DNA of 64,000 bases from a virus (IMGVR_UViG_3300045988_082442:1-64000), one strand, 5' to 3'; shown: positions 55,105 to 59,714, counted from the stretch's first letter. A program made the numbers and translations. The notes: a model not told the origin generated them from the sequence alone.

Positions 55105-57786
55105 ATGAACTTAATACAAAATATTTTTCAAAACCCCAATTTTAAAGTTGAGGGTGACCATCATAAATTAAAGAAAAGAATATTGAAAGATATAATCAAC
55201 ATGAACTGGTTTAACGATTGTGATTTACTTATAGGATATTCAGATGGTCAAAGAGTATATACTAATCCAAAGCAATGGCAATTAGATGCAGCAAATAGTT
55301 TATTTGAGTTTTATTGGAATTATACAGTTGATAGATATACTAATTATGACGCACTAGAGGATGAAATTTATAACCACATGAAGAACTCAAAATATGTAGG
55401 GGTACAAACAACAGTATTACCAAAATTTACAATACCATTTAGAGCAGATAGTGGACAATGCATGATAGATGAAAATGGAAATCAAACATTTAGAGATGGA
55501 ACACCAACTAGACCATTTTATTCTTTAATCTATATTGCACAAAATGGATTTATTGATTTTGATGATAAGATTAGATTAAAAGACTGGGATTCAGTTATAA
55601 GAAGTAACCCTAAATATTTAAGATACTTTGAAACTTGTTTAGACCATTTTGCAGATGGTGAAAATAGTGTCAAGAAACAAATAAGAGATTTAGTTAAAAC
55701 ATATAAAGATTTTAGAGATTATTTGGACCCTAATCTTCCAATAGTAGAAGATAGAAAATGGTTGTATGATTTCTGTGTTGAAGTAGATGTAAAGTGTGAC
55801 CCTTATAAAAATTATGAAACAGAATTATTACATAAAAATGGTTTTATAGTTATGGGTGGTAATGAATATATTTATTATAATGATATACCATGTGTAAACT
55901 GTGGAAAACCACATTATAGAAATGGTTTATGTAAAGACTGTTGTGAAATGAATTTTAGAGATAGAATGATAGGTAATAAACTATATGGAAAAGCAAGTCA
56001 AAGAAGTAACTCAATGCATCTAAACGAAATAAAGTTAGCAGGTGCAGCTGCAAGTGCAAGTTCAAGTAGTTATAGAGTTAGTGGGGATACATCAAGACAA
56101 GCACACAGTATGGATGATGAGAGTATTATATCAGCAAGTACAAGTGCAATATCTAGCAGAGCAAGTAGAGCTGCAGGAGAACCAGCAACAGTAGGTATAA
56201 ATACATCTGGAAATTCAGCAGTTATAGTAGATGATGATATTGGTAACGCAGCAAGTTCAAATAGGTCAAGTTTTGTAAGTAGAGCTGCAGGTGTAAATCT
56301 ATCAAGTAGTATTACAGGTGTATCAACAGCAGTTTCAGAAGAAAGAATGTCAGACGCAAGTCATACAGCAGTAAAAAGTAACCCAAGTAGAGCTTCAGGT
56401 ATAACAGTTAGCCAGAATACAACTGGAATATCAACAGCAGTTTCAGAAGAAAGAATGTCAGACGCAAGTCATACAGCAGTTGCAAGTAAAGTAAGTAGAA
56501 TGCCAGGACAAAATATGGGAAATGTTACACAGGTAGGTACAACAACATCTGCTAGTAGTACATCTGTATCAGATGATGGTATTGGGGCAGCAGCAAATAC
56601 CAGTGTTTCAAGTGGAAGCAGTCAGTCAAGGGGACAAAATATTGGTATGCAAAAACCAAGTGCAACATCAAGTGTAATTGATGAGGAAACTTTACAATTT
56701 GCAAGTTATGATAGTAGAGTTGCAGCATTTACACATACTTCTGGTGCCTCAGATGTAACATCAAATGAAGAAGTACAAAGAGCAGGATTGGAATCAAGAA
56801 CAGCAGGTTTTCAAACAGCAGTTAGAGCTGTAAATATAGGAAACAGTGAATTTGCAAATTCTAGAACAAGAGTTGGTGTTAGCGTTGGAACTACAACATC
56901 AGAGCAATCATTTGCAAGGAATAAAGATACAGTTGATGAGACTGGAAAAGCAAGTAGGAGTAGTATTATAACATCCCCATCAGCAACAAATATAAATGAT
57001 GTTAATTTTATAGGAAATATAAAAGACTTTGTTTATACATCTCCTAATACAGTTAGATACTATTCATCTCAAGGTAAGATATTCGATATGACCATACCAA
57101 AAGGTTATAGATACCCAGATAATATATCAACAAATAGATTCTTTATGTTTGGTAGTTTTAATGGTAATCTTGAATTATTAAAACAATTCTGTCCACAAAA
57201 TGCTTTCGTATTTGACCCATTTGCAGGTCATGGAGATAGAGCATTATTCTTTATGGAATATGGTTGTAAAGCATATATAGGAAATGATACTAACGTAAAA
57301 GAATGGACATTTTTAAATGATAATCTAATCAAGTTAATAAACAAATACAAGAGATTTAACCAAAAATGTGAGGTTAGAATAAAGAACTCAATGATATATG
57401 AACCAGAATTAGAGAATAAAGTAGACTTTGTTTACACATCCCCACCATATTTTGATTTTGAAATGTATGATGGATTTACTGAACAGATAGCAGGAATGAA
57501 AACATACGATGACTTCCACAGAGAGTTTTCAGTACCTATATTCAAAAATGTATATAGATATATGAAAGATGGTGGTGTAGTTATTCTACAAACAGAAAAA
57601 GATGCAAAATTAAAACAAAAGTGGATAGATATGATGGTTAGTGTTGGTTTTAAAAACATTACAGAACATGATTTAAGTAATGAACAAAAACATGGAATAA
57701 ATAAAACTATTCAAGAGATAGGTATATTTGTTAAAGGTGACTATAACAGGGGAGAGGTAAAACAAACAACTAACACATTATTTTAG
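55105..57786 (+). CDS. fusion protein: unknown N-terminal domain + CxxC..CxxC + about 340-aa Ser/Ala/Thr-rich SR-repeat linker + C-terminal SAM-dependent (S)PPY methyltransferase
   Basis: Motif I is FVFDPFAGHGDRAL and motif IV is DFVYTSPPYFDF. Paralogue of 57801..59714. Confidence 0.7.
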   Translation: MNLIQNIFQNPNFKVEGDHHKLKKRILKDIINMNWFNDCDLLIGYSDGQRVYTNPKQWQLDAANSLFEFYWNYTVDRYTNYDALEDEIYNHMKNSKYVGVQTTVLPKFTIPFRADSGQCMIDENGNQTFRDGTPTRPFYSLIYIAQNGFIDFDDKIRLKDWDSVIRSNPKYLRYFETCLDHFADGENSVKKQIRDLVKTYKDFRDYLDPNLPIVEDRKWLYDFCVEVDVKCDPYKNYETELLHKNGFIVMGGNEYIYYNDIPCVNCGKPHYRNGLCKDCCEMNFRDRMIGNKLYGKASQRSNSMHLNEIKLAGAAASASSSSYRVSGDTSRQAHSMDDESIISASTSAISSRASRAAGEPATVGINTSGNSAVIVDDDIGNAASSNRSSFVSRAAGVNLSSSITGVSTAVSEERMSDASHTAVKSNPSRASGITVSQNTTGISTAVSEERMSDASHTAVASKVSRMPGQNMGNVTQVGTTTSASSTSVSDDGIGAAANTSVSSGSSQSRGQNIGMQKPSATSSVIDEETLQFASYDSRVAAFTHTSGASDVTSNEEVQRAGLESRTAGFQTAVRAVNIGNSEFANSRTRVGVSVGTTTSEQSFARNKDTVDETGKASRSSIITSPSATNINDVNFIGNIKDFVYTSPNTVRYYSSQGKIFDMTIPKGYRYPDNISTNRFFMFGSFNGNLELLKQFCPQNAFVFDPFAGHGDRALFFMEYGCKAYIGNDTNVKEWTFLNDNLIKLINKYKRFNQKCEVRIKNSMIYEPELENKVDFVYTSPPYFDFEMYDGFTEQIAGMKTYDDFHREFSVPIFKNVYRYMKDGGVVILQTEKDAKLKQKWIDMMVSVGFKNITEHDLSNEQKHGINKTIQEIGIFVKGDYNRGEVKQTTNTLF
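56321..56480 (+). repeat. tandem 108-bp duplication (52-nt perfect cores)
   Basis: 56321-56372 and 56429-56480 are identical (TATCAACAGCAGTTTCAGAAGAAAGAATGTCAGACGCAAGTCATACAGCAGT). They are in frame and encode ISTAVSEERMSDASHTAV twice. Confidence 0.9.
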
Positions 57787-57800
57787 AAAGAGGTTTTATA

Positions 57801-59714
57801 ATGAATCTAGTACAAAATATTTTTCAAAACCCTAACTTTGAGATAAAAGGAGATAGGGATAAATTAAAACAGAAAATAGCAAAAGATGTCATAAATATGT
57901 ACTGGTGGAATGACTGTGGTATCCTTAAAGGATATGACAGCTCATTCCGAGTATATGCCAACCCAGAGATATGGCAGTTAGATGCAGCAAATGACCTTTA
58001 TGAATACTATTGGAATAAACAACAGGATAGCGTTACACTGGACAAATTAGAGGATAGTATTTATAGATATATGAGAAGTAATACTGAATTTGATACAAAT
58101 AATGGTTATTTATCTACTTTTAATATGAAATATAGAATGGACCCACAGCAATTTATGTATGATAAAGAAGGAAATCAAACATTTAGAGATGGTACACATA
58201 ACAGAGCATTCTATTCATTAGTCTATTTAGGTCAAAATGGATTTATAGATAGAGATGGGTATTTAAAAATATGTGATTTTGATACAGCAATTTTAGGAAC
58301 TAAATATGAGAAATTCTTTAAACTTTCTAAACATAGAATAAAAAGTGAGAAGAGCATGGTATCAGAGGAAATAAATAAGTTAAAAGATGGCTATATGAAA
58401 TTTGATAAATATTTAGACCCAAATTTACCAGTATTAGAAGATAGAAAATGGTTATATGATTTCTTTATGTATGTTGAGTTAAAATGTGACCCATTTAAGA
58501 ATTATGAAGTTGAATTACTTGAAAAGAATGGTTCTATTGTAGGCTCTGGAAATGAAGATATTTATGTTGAAATAGATGGTAAGAAGTGTGCTAATTGTGG
58601 GGTTAATGAACCATATATAAATGGACTTTGTAAAGACTGTCAGGATGTAAAAATAAATCATAGTTCTAGAGCAACAAGAGCTTCTGGTGCAAGTATAGCA
58701 GTAAGAAGTATAGATGCAAATATACAAGACGCATCAGTTATGGTAAATACAACTAGCCACACATATCAACCAAGAGGTGAAAGAGTAGATGCAAAAGAAA
58801 GAGTAGATAGAATATCAAGTACTAGCACATCTTGTATTGCAAATACAGACATAGTAACATCAGCAGCATTTTCTACAAAAGCTTCAGCAACATATAGACC
58901 AAGAGGAATTAGGGTAACTAATAATCAATATATTGGTGGTATTAAATATTTCAAATACAATGAAGATGGTACAGTGCATTATGATTTCCCAAGTGGTAAG
59001 ATACAAATGGATATGTCAGTACCAGAAGGTTATACATATCCAAAACAGATAGCTATTGATAGATTTGCTATTTATGGTAGCTTCAAAGGTAACCCAGAGT
59101 TATTAAGACAGTTTTGCCCACAAAATGCCTTTGTATTTGACCCGTTTGCAGGTCATGGGGATAGAGCTTTGATGTTTGCTAAATGGGGTGTAAAGACCTA
59201 TATAGGAAATGATACTAATTCAAGAGAATGGAGTTGCTTGAATAACACACTTATGCCTTTATTAAATAAATACAAAAAGTTTGGACAATATTTTGAAGTA
59301 AGAATTAAAGACTCTAAAATATATGAACCAGAACTAGAAAATAAAGTAGATTTTGTTTATACATCTCCACCTTACTTTGATTTTGAGGTATATGATGGAT
59401 TTGCTGAACAAATAGAGGGTATGAAGGATTATGATGATTTTCATAAGTATTTCTCAACACCTATATTTACAAATGTATATAGATACATGAAAGACGGAGG
59501 CATAGTAATATTACAGACTGAAAGAATAAATAAATATAAGAATAAATGGATAAAGATGATGGAAAATGTTGGCTTTAAATGTTTAGACAGTAATGTATTA
59601 AATACAAAGAATGCAATGGCAAAAAGAGTTAATATGCTTCAAGAAGTTGCAATATTTGTAAAAGGAAATTATAAAACAGATGATGTAAAAGTACAACAGA
59701 ACACATTATTTTAA
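57801..59714 (+). CDS. paralogous methyltransferase fusion protein with a short (about 90-aa) linker
   Basis: Shares N-terminus MNLVQNIFQNPNF.., ..NQTFRDGT.., YLDPNLPVLEDRKWLYDF, NGLCKDC, and a C-terminus with FDPFAGHGDRAL / TSPPYFDF. Confidence 0.7.
   Translation: MNLVQNIFQNPNFEIKGDRDKLKQKIAKDVINMYWWNDCGILKGYDSSFRVYANPEIWQLDAANDLYEYYWNKQQDSVTLDKLEDSIYRYMRSNTEFDTNNGYLSTFNMKYRMDPQQFMYDKEGNQTFRDGTHNRAFYSLVYLGQNGFIDRDGYLKICDFDTAILGTKYEKFFKLSKHRIKSEKSMVSEEINKLKDGYMKFDKYLDPNLPVLEDRKWLYDFFMYVELKCDPFKNYEVELLEKNGSIVGSGNEDIYVEIDGKKCANCGVNEPYINGLCKDCQDVKINHSSRATRASGASIAVRSIDANIQDASVMVNTTSHTYQPRGERVDAKERVDRISSTSTSCIANTDIVTSAAFSTKASATYRPRGIRVTNNQYIGGIKYFKYNEDGTVHYDFPSGKIQMDMSVPEGYTYPKQIAIDRFAIYGSFKGNPELLRQFCPQNAFVFDPFAGHGDRALMFAKWGVKTYIGNDTNSREWSCLNNTLMPLLNKYKKFGQYFEVRIKDSKIYEPELENKVDFVYTSPPYFDFEVYDGFAEQIEGMKDYDDFHKYFSTPIFTNVYRYMKDGGIVILQTERINKYKNKWIKMMENVGFKCLDSNVLNTKNAMAKRVNMLQEVAIFVKGNYKTDDVKVQQNTLF

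Follow-up and report, generated by a model that had tools for sequence, protein, structure and literature searches.

Two tandem phage proteins that join an N-terminal domain without detectable relatives to a putative, circularly permuted DNA methyltransferase

The subject of this study is a pair of adjacent genes, here called A and B, in a 64,000-nt stretch of viral DNA (IMGVR_UViG_3300045988_082442:1-64000; we refer to this whole stretch as the window, and count all its positions from its first letter). Both genes lie on the + strand between those for an SbcD/Mre11-like nuclease and an SbcC/Rad50-like protein, and their products consist of an N-terminal domain (N-domain), a zinc knuckle, a linker, a methyltransferase (MTase) domain and a short C-terminal tail. 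Paralogue A (55105..57786) has 893 aa, with a long linker and a tail ending in NTLF; paralogue B (57801..59714) has 637 aa and is built in the same way, with a short linker. An earlier interpretation of the locus from the DNA alone, to which we refer as the sequence-only reading, had reported tandem paralogues of 893 and 637 aa between sbcD and sbcC; both open reading frames (ORFs) are exact, and BLASTP supports the paralogy, with 41% identity over the N-terminal ~280 aa (E 7e-95), 50% identity over the C-terminal 370 aa (E 2e-113), and a middle part that is not alignable. A and B are true tandem paralogues, each with the three-part architecture of N-domain, linker and C-terminal methyltransferase that this reading had described, and all the sequence motifs it quoted are present in them. 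Its statement that the architecture corresponds to no described system also holds, as the whole protein has no match to any such system.

The MTase domain occupies 57010..57744 in A and 58938..59672 in B (+ strand in both cases), and in both it resembles a permuted PF01555 domain. FDPFAGHG and TSPPY are found in both paralogues: motif I (FVFDPFAGHGDR) corresponds to aa 701-712 of A (57205-57240) and 444-455 of B (59130-59165), and motif IV (DFVYTSPPYFDFE), which contains the SPPY signature, to aa 774-786 of A (57424-57462) and 517-529 of B (59349-59387). The order of the two motifs is as previously reported, but their spacing is 73 aa rather than about 90. The PF01555 (N6_N4_Mtase) profile is matched with 34.4 bits by A and 43.0 bits by B, above its gathering score of 26.7, which bears out the earlier assignment of a C-terminal Rossmann methyltransferase with SPPY as motif IV after motif I. 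This match is colinear only over profile positions 1-119 of 221, from the SPPY motif onward. When B was compared with PDB sequences, query residues 130-188, around motif IV, matched residues 38-95 of 2ZIE (TTHA0409), and query residues 50-82, around motif I, matched residues 227-259 of that chain, in swapped order. The same permuted pattern is obtained with A4, a 17-sequence profile of the family MTase domain in which S-P-P-Y and both motif I glycines are invariant; its best relatives in the PDB are 2ZIE (1.3e-9), M.MboIIA, the rotifer N4-cytosine MTase 8S9N/8S9M, DpnA and CcrM. Pfam places motif I of a distant family member, P0038, at PF01555 positions 186-217 of 221, and the segment that follows motif IV (SPPYfdfE..Y......dY.dF....pvf.nvy.yL..gG) aligns specifically with beta-class DNA MTases.

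The classes of these enzymes are defined by the order of motif I, motif IV and the target-recognition domain (TRD), which is I-TRD-IV in the alpha class, IV-TRD-I in the beta class and I-IV-TRD in the gamma class (PMC7544214). The arrangement found in A and B is (YP-containing, motif X-like segment)-I-II-III-IV...VIII-end; the catalytic domain of ~245 aa starts ~60 aa before motif I and stops after the last strand plus a 13-aa tail, and no TRD is present either after motif VIII or between the motifs. Judged from these alignments, the domain has the beta-class (PF01555) fold in circularly permuted form and no built-in TRD, and its new chain termini would coincide with the position of the TRD in beta-class enzymes. 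Among the PADLOC profiles, A and B match type II MTases; A also shows a colinear match to mad2 from motif I to the end (E 3.8e-8), and B has no match to this profile at E <= 0.01. An intein-like insert of about 330 aa is found in three family members (P0027, at L007 3715-6345, P0046 and P0085), with the junctions FDPF-CVDGETEY...ATGN-(C/S)GHG (the hyphens mark the two ends of the insert) and a weak LAGLIDADG_3 match; its location exactly in motif I suggests that this motif is highly conserved and functionally important.

SPPY is typical of most bacterial N4-cytosine MTases, and DPPY of N6-adenine enzymes (PMC8885841, PMC10406627). Because motif IV of A and B is SPPY, N4-methylcytosine would be the most likely product, with N6-methyladenine as the alternative. 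The sequence-only reading had considered the substrate undecidable, and this appears too pessimistic: DNA is probably a likelier substrate than RNA, because the PF01555 threshold is passed, both permuted halves are of the beta class, the matches to RNA MTases are all sub-threshold, and the genes found next to family members code for DNA MTases and recombination proteins.

The N-terminal alpha/beta domain corresponds to aa 1-262 of both proteins, at 55105..55890 in A, where it is delimited by family alignments, and at 57801..58586 in B (+ strand in both cases), on which the structure model was made. The AlphaFold2 model of the B domain has a pLDDT (predicted local distance difference test) of 88.7 and a pTM (predicted TM-score) of 0.85, and was obtained with a 39-sequence family-wide alignment; an earlier 13-sequence alignment, restricted to the clade of jumbo phages to which the window belongs, had given an unusable model with a pLDDT of 45. 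The extreme N-terminus is part of the fold (pLDDT 98). With this confident model the Foldseek comparison suggested by the sequence-only reading could be carried out, and neither the PDB nor BFVD contained a fold match (best E = 1.6, TM about 0.1). A profile of the domain retrieved nothing from the PDB sequences even at E = 10, and there was no credible match in Pfam, PHROGs or NCBIfam. The domain, which had been called unrecognised, thus continues to deserve that description; as far as the model and the profiles indicate, it is without detectable relative in the PDB, BFVD, Pfam, PHROGs and NCBIfam. Matches to the Pfam family NUC153 in 10 of the 39 N-domains are below the cut-off (best E 0.0016) and were taken as noise.

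An exhaustive comparison of a HMMER profile of the N-domain with 1.84 billion representative proteins produced only 14 matches, of which 13 are this same three-part fusion or fragments of it. The remaining one, P0032 (1934 aa, with five short matches to N-domain positions 59-96), is a repetitive protein that we judged unrelated. The N-domain is never paired with another partner, and fusion to this MTase is its sole context. All 39 domains, those of A and B included, share ten invariant residues (D29, G44, Y45, R50, R112, Q117, R135, D150, D152, D230), and both paralogues carry the motifs (R/K)D(I/V)(I/V)NM.W, GY...R, R...SQ, QNG(F/Y).D.D and DP(Y/F)K. Invariant polar residues of this kind would suit a ligand-binding or catalytic site. 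The N-domain is followed by a zinc knuckle, CVNCGKPHYRNGLCKDC at aa 263-279 of A (55891..55941, +) and CANCGVNEPYINGLCKDC at aa 263-280 of B (58587..58640, +). While the earlier statement that the domain ends in such a knuckle is correct for A and B, alignments show that the pattern CxxCG...NGLCxxC is missing from distant members and is confined to the jumbo-phage clade, so that it is a clade-specific addition and not a part of the conserved N-domain.

The linker of A (55972..57009, +) comprises ~345 aa rich in Ser, Ala, Thr and Gly (S 21%, A 12%, T 9%), and that of B (58650..58937, +) ~95 aa (about 90-100) arranged as degenerate ~45-aa units, with one extra unit in the orthologue P0002; taken together, their composition is Ser/Ala/Thr/Gly/Asn-rich. 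At the DNA level, the A linker contains a 108-bp tandem duplication at 56277-56522 and an array of five GCAAGT units at 56038-56067, and its G+C content is 0.38 versus about 0.28 in the surroundings. The distance from the knuckle to motif I ranges from 423 to 578 residues in A-type and from 159 to 210 in B-type orthologues, and the length of the tether in the family as a whole from about 40 to over 400 residues. The sequence-only reading had recognized low-complexity linkers of very different lengths; the difference in length is real, but in distant homologues the linker is a regular tripeptide repeat, (x-Ala-Ser)n, of roughly 15-55 units, in which x is mostly R, D, N, H, S, A, Y, C or G. Repeat linkers of this type were noted in L006, L008, L010-L012, L013 (about 10750-11000) and L014.

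These repeats are coded by a 9-bp unit, NN(C/A)-GCA-AGC, in which codon choice is homogenised and only the variable codon differs. For example, in the linker of L006 (about 7060-7380) 35 of 36 serines use AGC, versus 19-23% elsewhere in the gene and locus, and 81% of the alanines use GCA, versus 21-24%. The constant part of the unit is always GCA-AGT in the AT-rich L011, and GCC-AGC in L008. A weak trace of the same bias can be recognized in the linkers of A and B, with a period of about 36 aa (Ala GCA 84% versus a background of 47%, Ser AGT 50% versus 32%). The homogenisation may be due to concerted evolution or to selection at the DNA/RNA level, and we infer that the linker is a flexible tether that would grow and shrink through repeat slippage. 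Two other explanations of the repeat were rejected. A diversity-generating retroelement, considered on account of the NNC-rich variable triplet, does not agree with adenines of the constant GCA and AGC codons that do not vary, nor with the occurrence of CGA and CAA codons, and neither a reverse transcriptase nor a template repeat was seen. A frameshift product, considered because the (R/K)-rich +2 frame of the L006 linker is without stops, is contradicted by the stops present in the same frame of L013 and L008.

In both proteins the last MTase strand (...IFVKG(D/N)Y) is followed by a 13-residue tail ending in NTLF, with VKQTTNTLF in A (57757..57783, +) and VKVQQNTLF in B (59685..59711, +). The ending (N/D)(T/K)LF is common to all 22 clade proteins, and the tail is missing in distant members; tandem duplication, zinc knuckle and N-x-L-F tail are the clade-specific traits of A and B. 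Similar C-termini are found in SbcD (...ANSLF in the window, ...SSVLF and ...SSNLF in relatives), in the flap endonuclease (5'-3' exonuclease, 45647..46720; ...ITHLF), and in the homing-endonuclease ORFs inserted in relatives (...NKLF). Among the 56 larger ORFs of the window, a C-terminal N-x-L-F is expected 0.012 times and is observed in three adjacent genes, and for a C-terminal ...LF the expected number is 0.16 and the observed number four, in every case in a DNA-metabolism gene. As a further observation, (N/H)-x-L-F tails of clade DNA-metabolism proteins also occur on a 140-aa ORF, an 896-aa ORF (41650-44340) ends in ...NHLY, and tail-bearing ORFs in relatives include L001 5050-6222, 6231-6881 and 18319-18747 and L003 4623-5792, 5804-6679 and 18167-18589.

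These tails resemble the motif by which bacterial proteins bind the sliding clamp, Q-phi-x-L-F with the consensus QL[SD]LF, in which positions 1, 4 and 5 are the most important and the deep subsite takes up the LF pair (bioRxiv 10.64898/2026.05.27.728225). QNTLF of B fits positions 1, 4 and 5, and TNTLF of A, ANSLF of SbcD and ITHLF of the flap endonuclease fit positions 4 and 5 only. We propose that the tails of A, B, SbcD and the flap endonuclease may dock on one hub, most plausibly a sliding clamp, and such shared docking would place the methyltransferases at replicating DNA.

Upstream of A, the SbcD/Mre11-like nuclease gene (53768..54865, +; phrog_100 E 1.6e-34, Pfam Metallophos, C-terminus ...NKANSLF) is followed by a 56-aa ORF (54890..55060, +) that has no match in Pfam or PHROGs and none by tblastn in the relatives L001 and L003-L005, where it is not conserved. 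A promoter-like extended -10 element (AAAGATGTTATAAT, 55071..55084, +) comes next, with a ribosome-binding site (GAGAGG) at 55090-55095. Downstream of B, the SbcC/Rad50-like gene (59730..61682, +; phrog_77 E 1.6e-72) begins 15 nt past the end of B. The A-B and B-sbcC gaps measure 14-15 nt, each with a GAGG-type ribosome-binding site, and there is no terminator-like site between A, B and sbcC; on account of these short gaps and of the missing terminator the three genes probably form one transcription unit. A class-2 promoter had been proposed at 55071. The extended -10 TGTTATAAT is indeed present at 55076-55084, with AAAGA immediately 5' to it; all three of its other + strand copies in the window are upstream of ORFs, and two of the three (164-177 and 49939-49952) share the context (A/G)AAGATGTTATAAT. 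However, the 9-mer TGTTATAAT occurs 6 times versus 4.3 expected, which is not above chance, and the promoter is thus plausible as a match to the consensus.

L001 and L003-L005 retain the order helicase ... sbcD - (variable ORFs) - A - B - sbcC - dUTPase. In relatives, homing-endonuclease genes of HNH/NUMOD4 type occupy the gap between sbcD and A, and in Twort-like phages two small genes lie between sbcD and sbcC. An interruption between sbcD and sbcC, to which attention had been drawn by comparison with T4-type phages, is therefore not remarkable in itself, although the insertion of A and B is a true feature of the whole clade; an SbcC-based search of IMG/VR found no clade member in which sbcD and sbcC adjoin. 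In the comparison of the window with L001 and L003, the A and B domains are 77-93% identical (mostly 86-93%), versus 63-68% for SbcD, 64-66% for SbcC, 50-59% for the helicase and 62% for dUTPase. Since A and B are more conserved than these four neighbours, and their catalytic motifs are intact, both paralogues appear to be under strong purifying selection.

The family consists of about 80 protein clusters, all from phages or metagenomes. A distant member, used as the query of a further database search, brought in about 50 members beyond those matched by the N-domain profile, all metagenomic and named 'hypothetical protein' or 'SAM-dependent methyltransferase' (SAM, S-adenosylmethionine), while profile A2 retrieved only three fragments from a word-indexed protein database. 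A scan of 185,579 species-representative genomes returned two loci, both on contigs of metagenome-assembled genomes that resemble binned phage. As far as can be seen, the family is phage-only.

The distant members in IMG/VR are single-copy genes on nine otherwise unrelated contigs of about 20-49 kb. The genes next to those of L008 and L013 have no detectable match in the other distant contigs, and the fusion gene is the only one shared, which points to its horizontal movement as a self-sufficient unit. Its neighbours are a DNA polymerase and a primase-helicase in L008, RecT in L013, another DNA MTase and a RecE-like exonuclease in L010, another DNA MTase in L014, a ParB-like gene 4 bp upstream and an SbcC-like gene in L012, a resolvase-like endonuclease in L011 (where the family gene directly follows tail and baseplate genes), and an SbcD-like metallophosphoesterase in L006. 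This context fits a DNA-directed function, and the clustering with other MTases would fit a role in anti-restriction. Some of these loci have the appearance of methyltransferase islets, with the family gene placed right after a ParB-like gene (L012 8244-8936) or after MTase genes of phrog_116/363 (L010 8064-9413, L014 4882-5856).

With regard to the phage itself, a megablast search of 53700-61700 against GenBank phages gave no match, and a literature search on the clade yielded nothing useful. The window encodes a tail sheath protein, the anaerobic ribonucleotide reductase NrdD/NrdG, thymidylate synthase, several homing endonucleases, a flap endonuclease, dUTPase, and Cpn10- and SpoVG-like proteins; orthologues of A and B sit on contigs of 211-225 kb, two of which are binned as 'uncultured Clostridium sp.' and 'uncultured Bacilli bacterium'. 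The phage is a low-G+C jumbo myophage, apparently of anaerobic Bacillota; it is not of the T4 type, with which the sequence-only reading had compared it.

A few other features of the window deserve mention. Two proteins with dockerin type I repeats are encoded at 3643-5823 and 22762-25416, the second with four such stretches (E 3e-31) and EF-hand-type matches; such repeats hint that these two large proteins bind cohesins on a host with cellulosomes, perhaps in receptor binding or surface decoration. A MazF/PemK-like toxin gene (44912-45289; PemK_toxin E 7.6e-19) is located in the replication region, just 5' of the flap endonuclease gene. Selfish endonucleases are abundant in the genome, with paralogous homing-endonuclease-like ORFs of 534 and 661 aa at 1979-3583 and 7000-8985 (phrog_3339/559) and further HNH genes elsewhere, for instance at 39619-40194. 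This last one lies within a fragmented serine hydroxymethyltransferase gene on the minus strand (38923-41018), of which the N-terminal part is at 40413-41018 (PDB serine hydroxymethyltransferase residues about 18-191, E 2e-65), the piece with the pyridoxal phosphate-lysine motif at 39362-39571, and the C-terminal piece at 38923-39225; the gene looks broken by at least two intervening sequences. An Rfam scan of the whole window gave no match, and thus no intron, at gathering scores. Very large ORFs are found at 41650-44340 (896 aa) and 46843-49209 (788 aa), both in the replication region, and at 19308-22664 (1118 aa); none of the three has a credible Pfam or PHROG match, and the 896-aa ORF is also without a match among PDB sequences.

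These observations can be brought together in the proposal that A and B are DNA amino-methyltransferases, probably forming N4-methylcytosine, which act on replicating phage DNA for protection from restriction or for self-marking, with the N-domain serving for anchoring or recognition; we assign to this proposal a probability of roughly 55%. A and B would be active S-adenosylmethionine-dependent enzymes of a phage-restricted, undescribed family, expressed together with sbcC from an extended -10 promoter of their own in a replication and recombination module. The tethered N-domain would choose the site of action, either by binding DNA or by anchoring to a partner; it is the only candidate for a targeting module, because the termini of the permutant would lie at the TRD position and the catalytic domain has no TRD of its own. 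The NxLF tail would dock A, B, SbcD and the flap endonuclease on one hub, most plausibly a sliding clamp, and methylation of the replicating DNA would either shield it from restriction by the host or label it as self against phage or host nucleases. Beta-class enzymes work as dimers, and the two copies might serve different targets or strands, or form a heterodimer. The anti-restriction or DNA-modification role already suggested by the sequence-only reading would be in keeping with such a scheme.

Several points weigh against this proposal. A long floppy tether between recognition module and catalysis is awkward for precise, sequence-specific methylation, and the N-domains of both paralogues are acidic (pI about 5), the pI in the family ranging from 5 to 9.7 without consistent basicity, which does not favour a simple DNA-binding role. 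The assignment of the tail to the clamp relies on a motif of 4-5 residues in which Gln at position 1 is present only in B and the residue at position 2 is non-aliphatic, and no gene for a clamp could be identified in the window. The rule that connects SPPY to N4-cytosine is a tendency with exceptions, the order of motif I before motif IV is also that of RNA and protein MTases, there is a weak colinear match to 3EVZ (4e-5), and the proposed promoter of A is a consensus match.

A more specific version of the mechanism, which we regard as speculative and rather unlikely, is that of a methyltransferase on a leash: the N-domain would have a new fold and act as an anchor or recognition module, the catalytic domain would sweep the DNA within a radius set by the (x-Ala-Ser)n tether, whose length would be tuned by slippage of the homogenised 9-bp repeat, and in the jumbo-phage clade the NxLF tail would dock both paralogues, SbcD and the flap endonuclease on the clamp, coupling methylation to the replisome. 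As for the kind of mark, A and B might instead be DNA MTases whose product is regulatory rather than protective, a label on replicated phage DNA that would direct or restrain the adjacent SbcCD-type nuclease, packaging or recombination-dependent replication. Throughout the clade A and B belong to the sbcD-sbcC operon. In unrelated phages, genes for SbcC-like proteins, metallophosphoesterases, RecE, RecT and resolvases are repeatedly found close to family members; the homologue of Twort-like phages is near SbcD, and SbcD has the same C-terminal tail. However, the association is with DNA-metabolism modules in general (the neighbour in L008 is a DNA polymerase), the MTase neighbours in L010 and L014 look more like an anti-restriction islet, and no SbcCD enzyme is known to be sensitive to methylation; this alternative is unlikely. 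The time and place of action are also at issue in the idea that A and B are packaged in the virion and injected, like DarB of P1, to protect the incoming DNA in cis, the tether easing passage through the tail and the N-domain targeting the capsid or binding DNA ends. A protein of modular build with long disordered stretches would be suited to ejection, a mobile and self-contained gene is what anti-restriction cargo would be, and the copy in L011 directly follows tail and baseplate genes. In the window and in L008, L010, L012 and L013, on the other hand, the gene is housed in replication or recombination modules; in addition, a sigma-70-type extended -10 lies upstream and the gene is not placed among structural genes, the N-terminus is folded rather than a cleavable targeting peptide, and the C-terminal tail is held in common with replication nucleases. 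We consider such an injected enzyme quite improbable.

Other alternatives concern the substrate. If A and B were RNA methyltransferases (m2G or m6A, of RsmD, Trm11 or METTL5 type) acting on rRNA, tRNA or mRNA of the host or the phage in the course of takeover, with the N-domain binding RNA or the ribosome, their I-then-IV order and ~73-aa spacing would be those of such enzymes (PMC7544214), and there are weak colinear matches in this direction: the A4 profile matches Trm11-like 5E71 (E 0.038), METTL5 (0.09) and U6 METTL16 (0.36), A but not B matches PF03602 (E 0.059, 13.5 bits versus a cut-off of 24), and TIGR01177 is matched by the Twort-like homologue only (E 3.8e-4, 19.9 bits versus 316). 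Every one of these RNA-family matches is under its cut-off, whereas PF01555 is over its own; the segment after motif IV is specific to beta-class DNA MTases, the serine of motif IV is the signature of N4-cytosine DNA enzymes, the neighbours are DNA MTase, recombination and replication genes and never translation genes, and neither protein has a THUMP, PUA or other RNA-binding domain, all of which makes an RNA substrate improbable. Very improbable indeed is a protein substrate, by way of HemK/PrmC-like N-methylation of Gln or Lys in some host or phage protein, perhaps within the repeat region of A and B themselves. HemK/PrmA/PrmB-type enzymes use NPPY rather than SPPY. The HemK, PrmA and PrmB families had no sequence match in any scan (Pfam, NCBIfam, PDB), and x in the (x-Ala-Ser)n repeat is rarely Gln or Lys, even though the (D/N/S)PPY enzymes do include protein glutamine and lysine MTases (PMC7544214) and the repeat linker is otherwise unexplained.

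Orphan phage MTases are a main escape route from restriction, and they supply enzymes for methylome engineering and footprinting. Should the target of A and B be set by the N-domain, the family would represent a new mode of coupling recognition to catalysis; if methylation is instead non-specific or coupled to the clamp, its members would be of practical use as tools and would add a new case of DNA marking coupled to replication. That the function is important to the phage is suggested by the higher conservation of A and B relative to the nuclease, helicase and dUTPase neighbours, and by the movement of the gene between unrelated phages. Databases label the members 'hypothetical protein' or generic methyltransferase, and a defined family would aid phage annotation.

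The relationship of A and B to known systems can be summarized as follows. With the beta-class enzymes (TTHA0409 2ZIE, M.MboIIA 1G60, N4CMT 8S9N, DpnA, CcrM) they have in common motif I (FDPFaGhG), motif IV (TSPPY) and the segment following it, but motif I precedes motif IV, there is no TRD between motifs VIII and X, and the N-domain and tether have no counterpart. The gamma-class enzymes (M.TaqI type) have the same I-then-IV order, but A and B lack their C-terminal TRD and have no match to gamma-class Pfam families; the short spacing between the two motifs is shared with the gamma-class and RsmD/Trm11-type enzymes, but motif IV has Ser instead of Asn or Asp, and there is no family-level sequence match above cut-off to either group. 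Mad2 of the MADS system, which is needed for DNA methylation at TCAGNNNNTCC, is a DNA MTase working with a separate specificity component; in A and B specificity would come from the tethered domain and not from a subunit, no other mad genes are beside them (the neighbours are SbcD and SbcC), and the setting is a phage rather than a host defence island.

Among phage enzymes, the stand-alone MTase of Twort-like phages (staphylococcal and Mammaliicoccus phages; PHROG 12517, annotated 'DNA methyltransferase' in Alsa_1, 328 aa) has a similar permuted catalytic domain, with 31% identity and SPPY; it is a single-copy gene located between the helicase and SbcD, and is without N-domain, Ser/Ala tether, zinc knuckle and NxLF tail. 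The phage fusions of a ParB domain to an MTase (PHROG 498, 67) are, like A and B, orphan amino-MTases with an additional N-terminal module related to nucleic acids, but the N-domain of A and B is not ParB-like by Pfam or by fold, their catalytic domain is permuted, and they have a long repeat tether. If the leash mechanism applied, it would be analogous to the PCNA-coupled maintenance methylation of eukaryotes as another case of clamp-coupled marking. The family as such is absent from Pfam, PHROGs, NCBIfam and PADLOC, and we found no description of its combined architecture, to which this clade adds the duplication, the zinc knuckle and the shared docking-like tail. Overall, then, the catalytic superfamily is known, and what is new is the permuted core without a TRD, its exclusive fusion to an N-domain without detectable structural relative, and the tripeptide tether that joins them.

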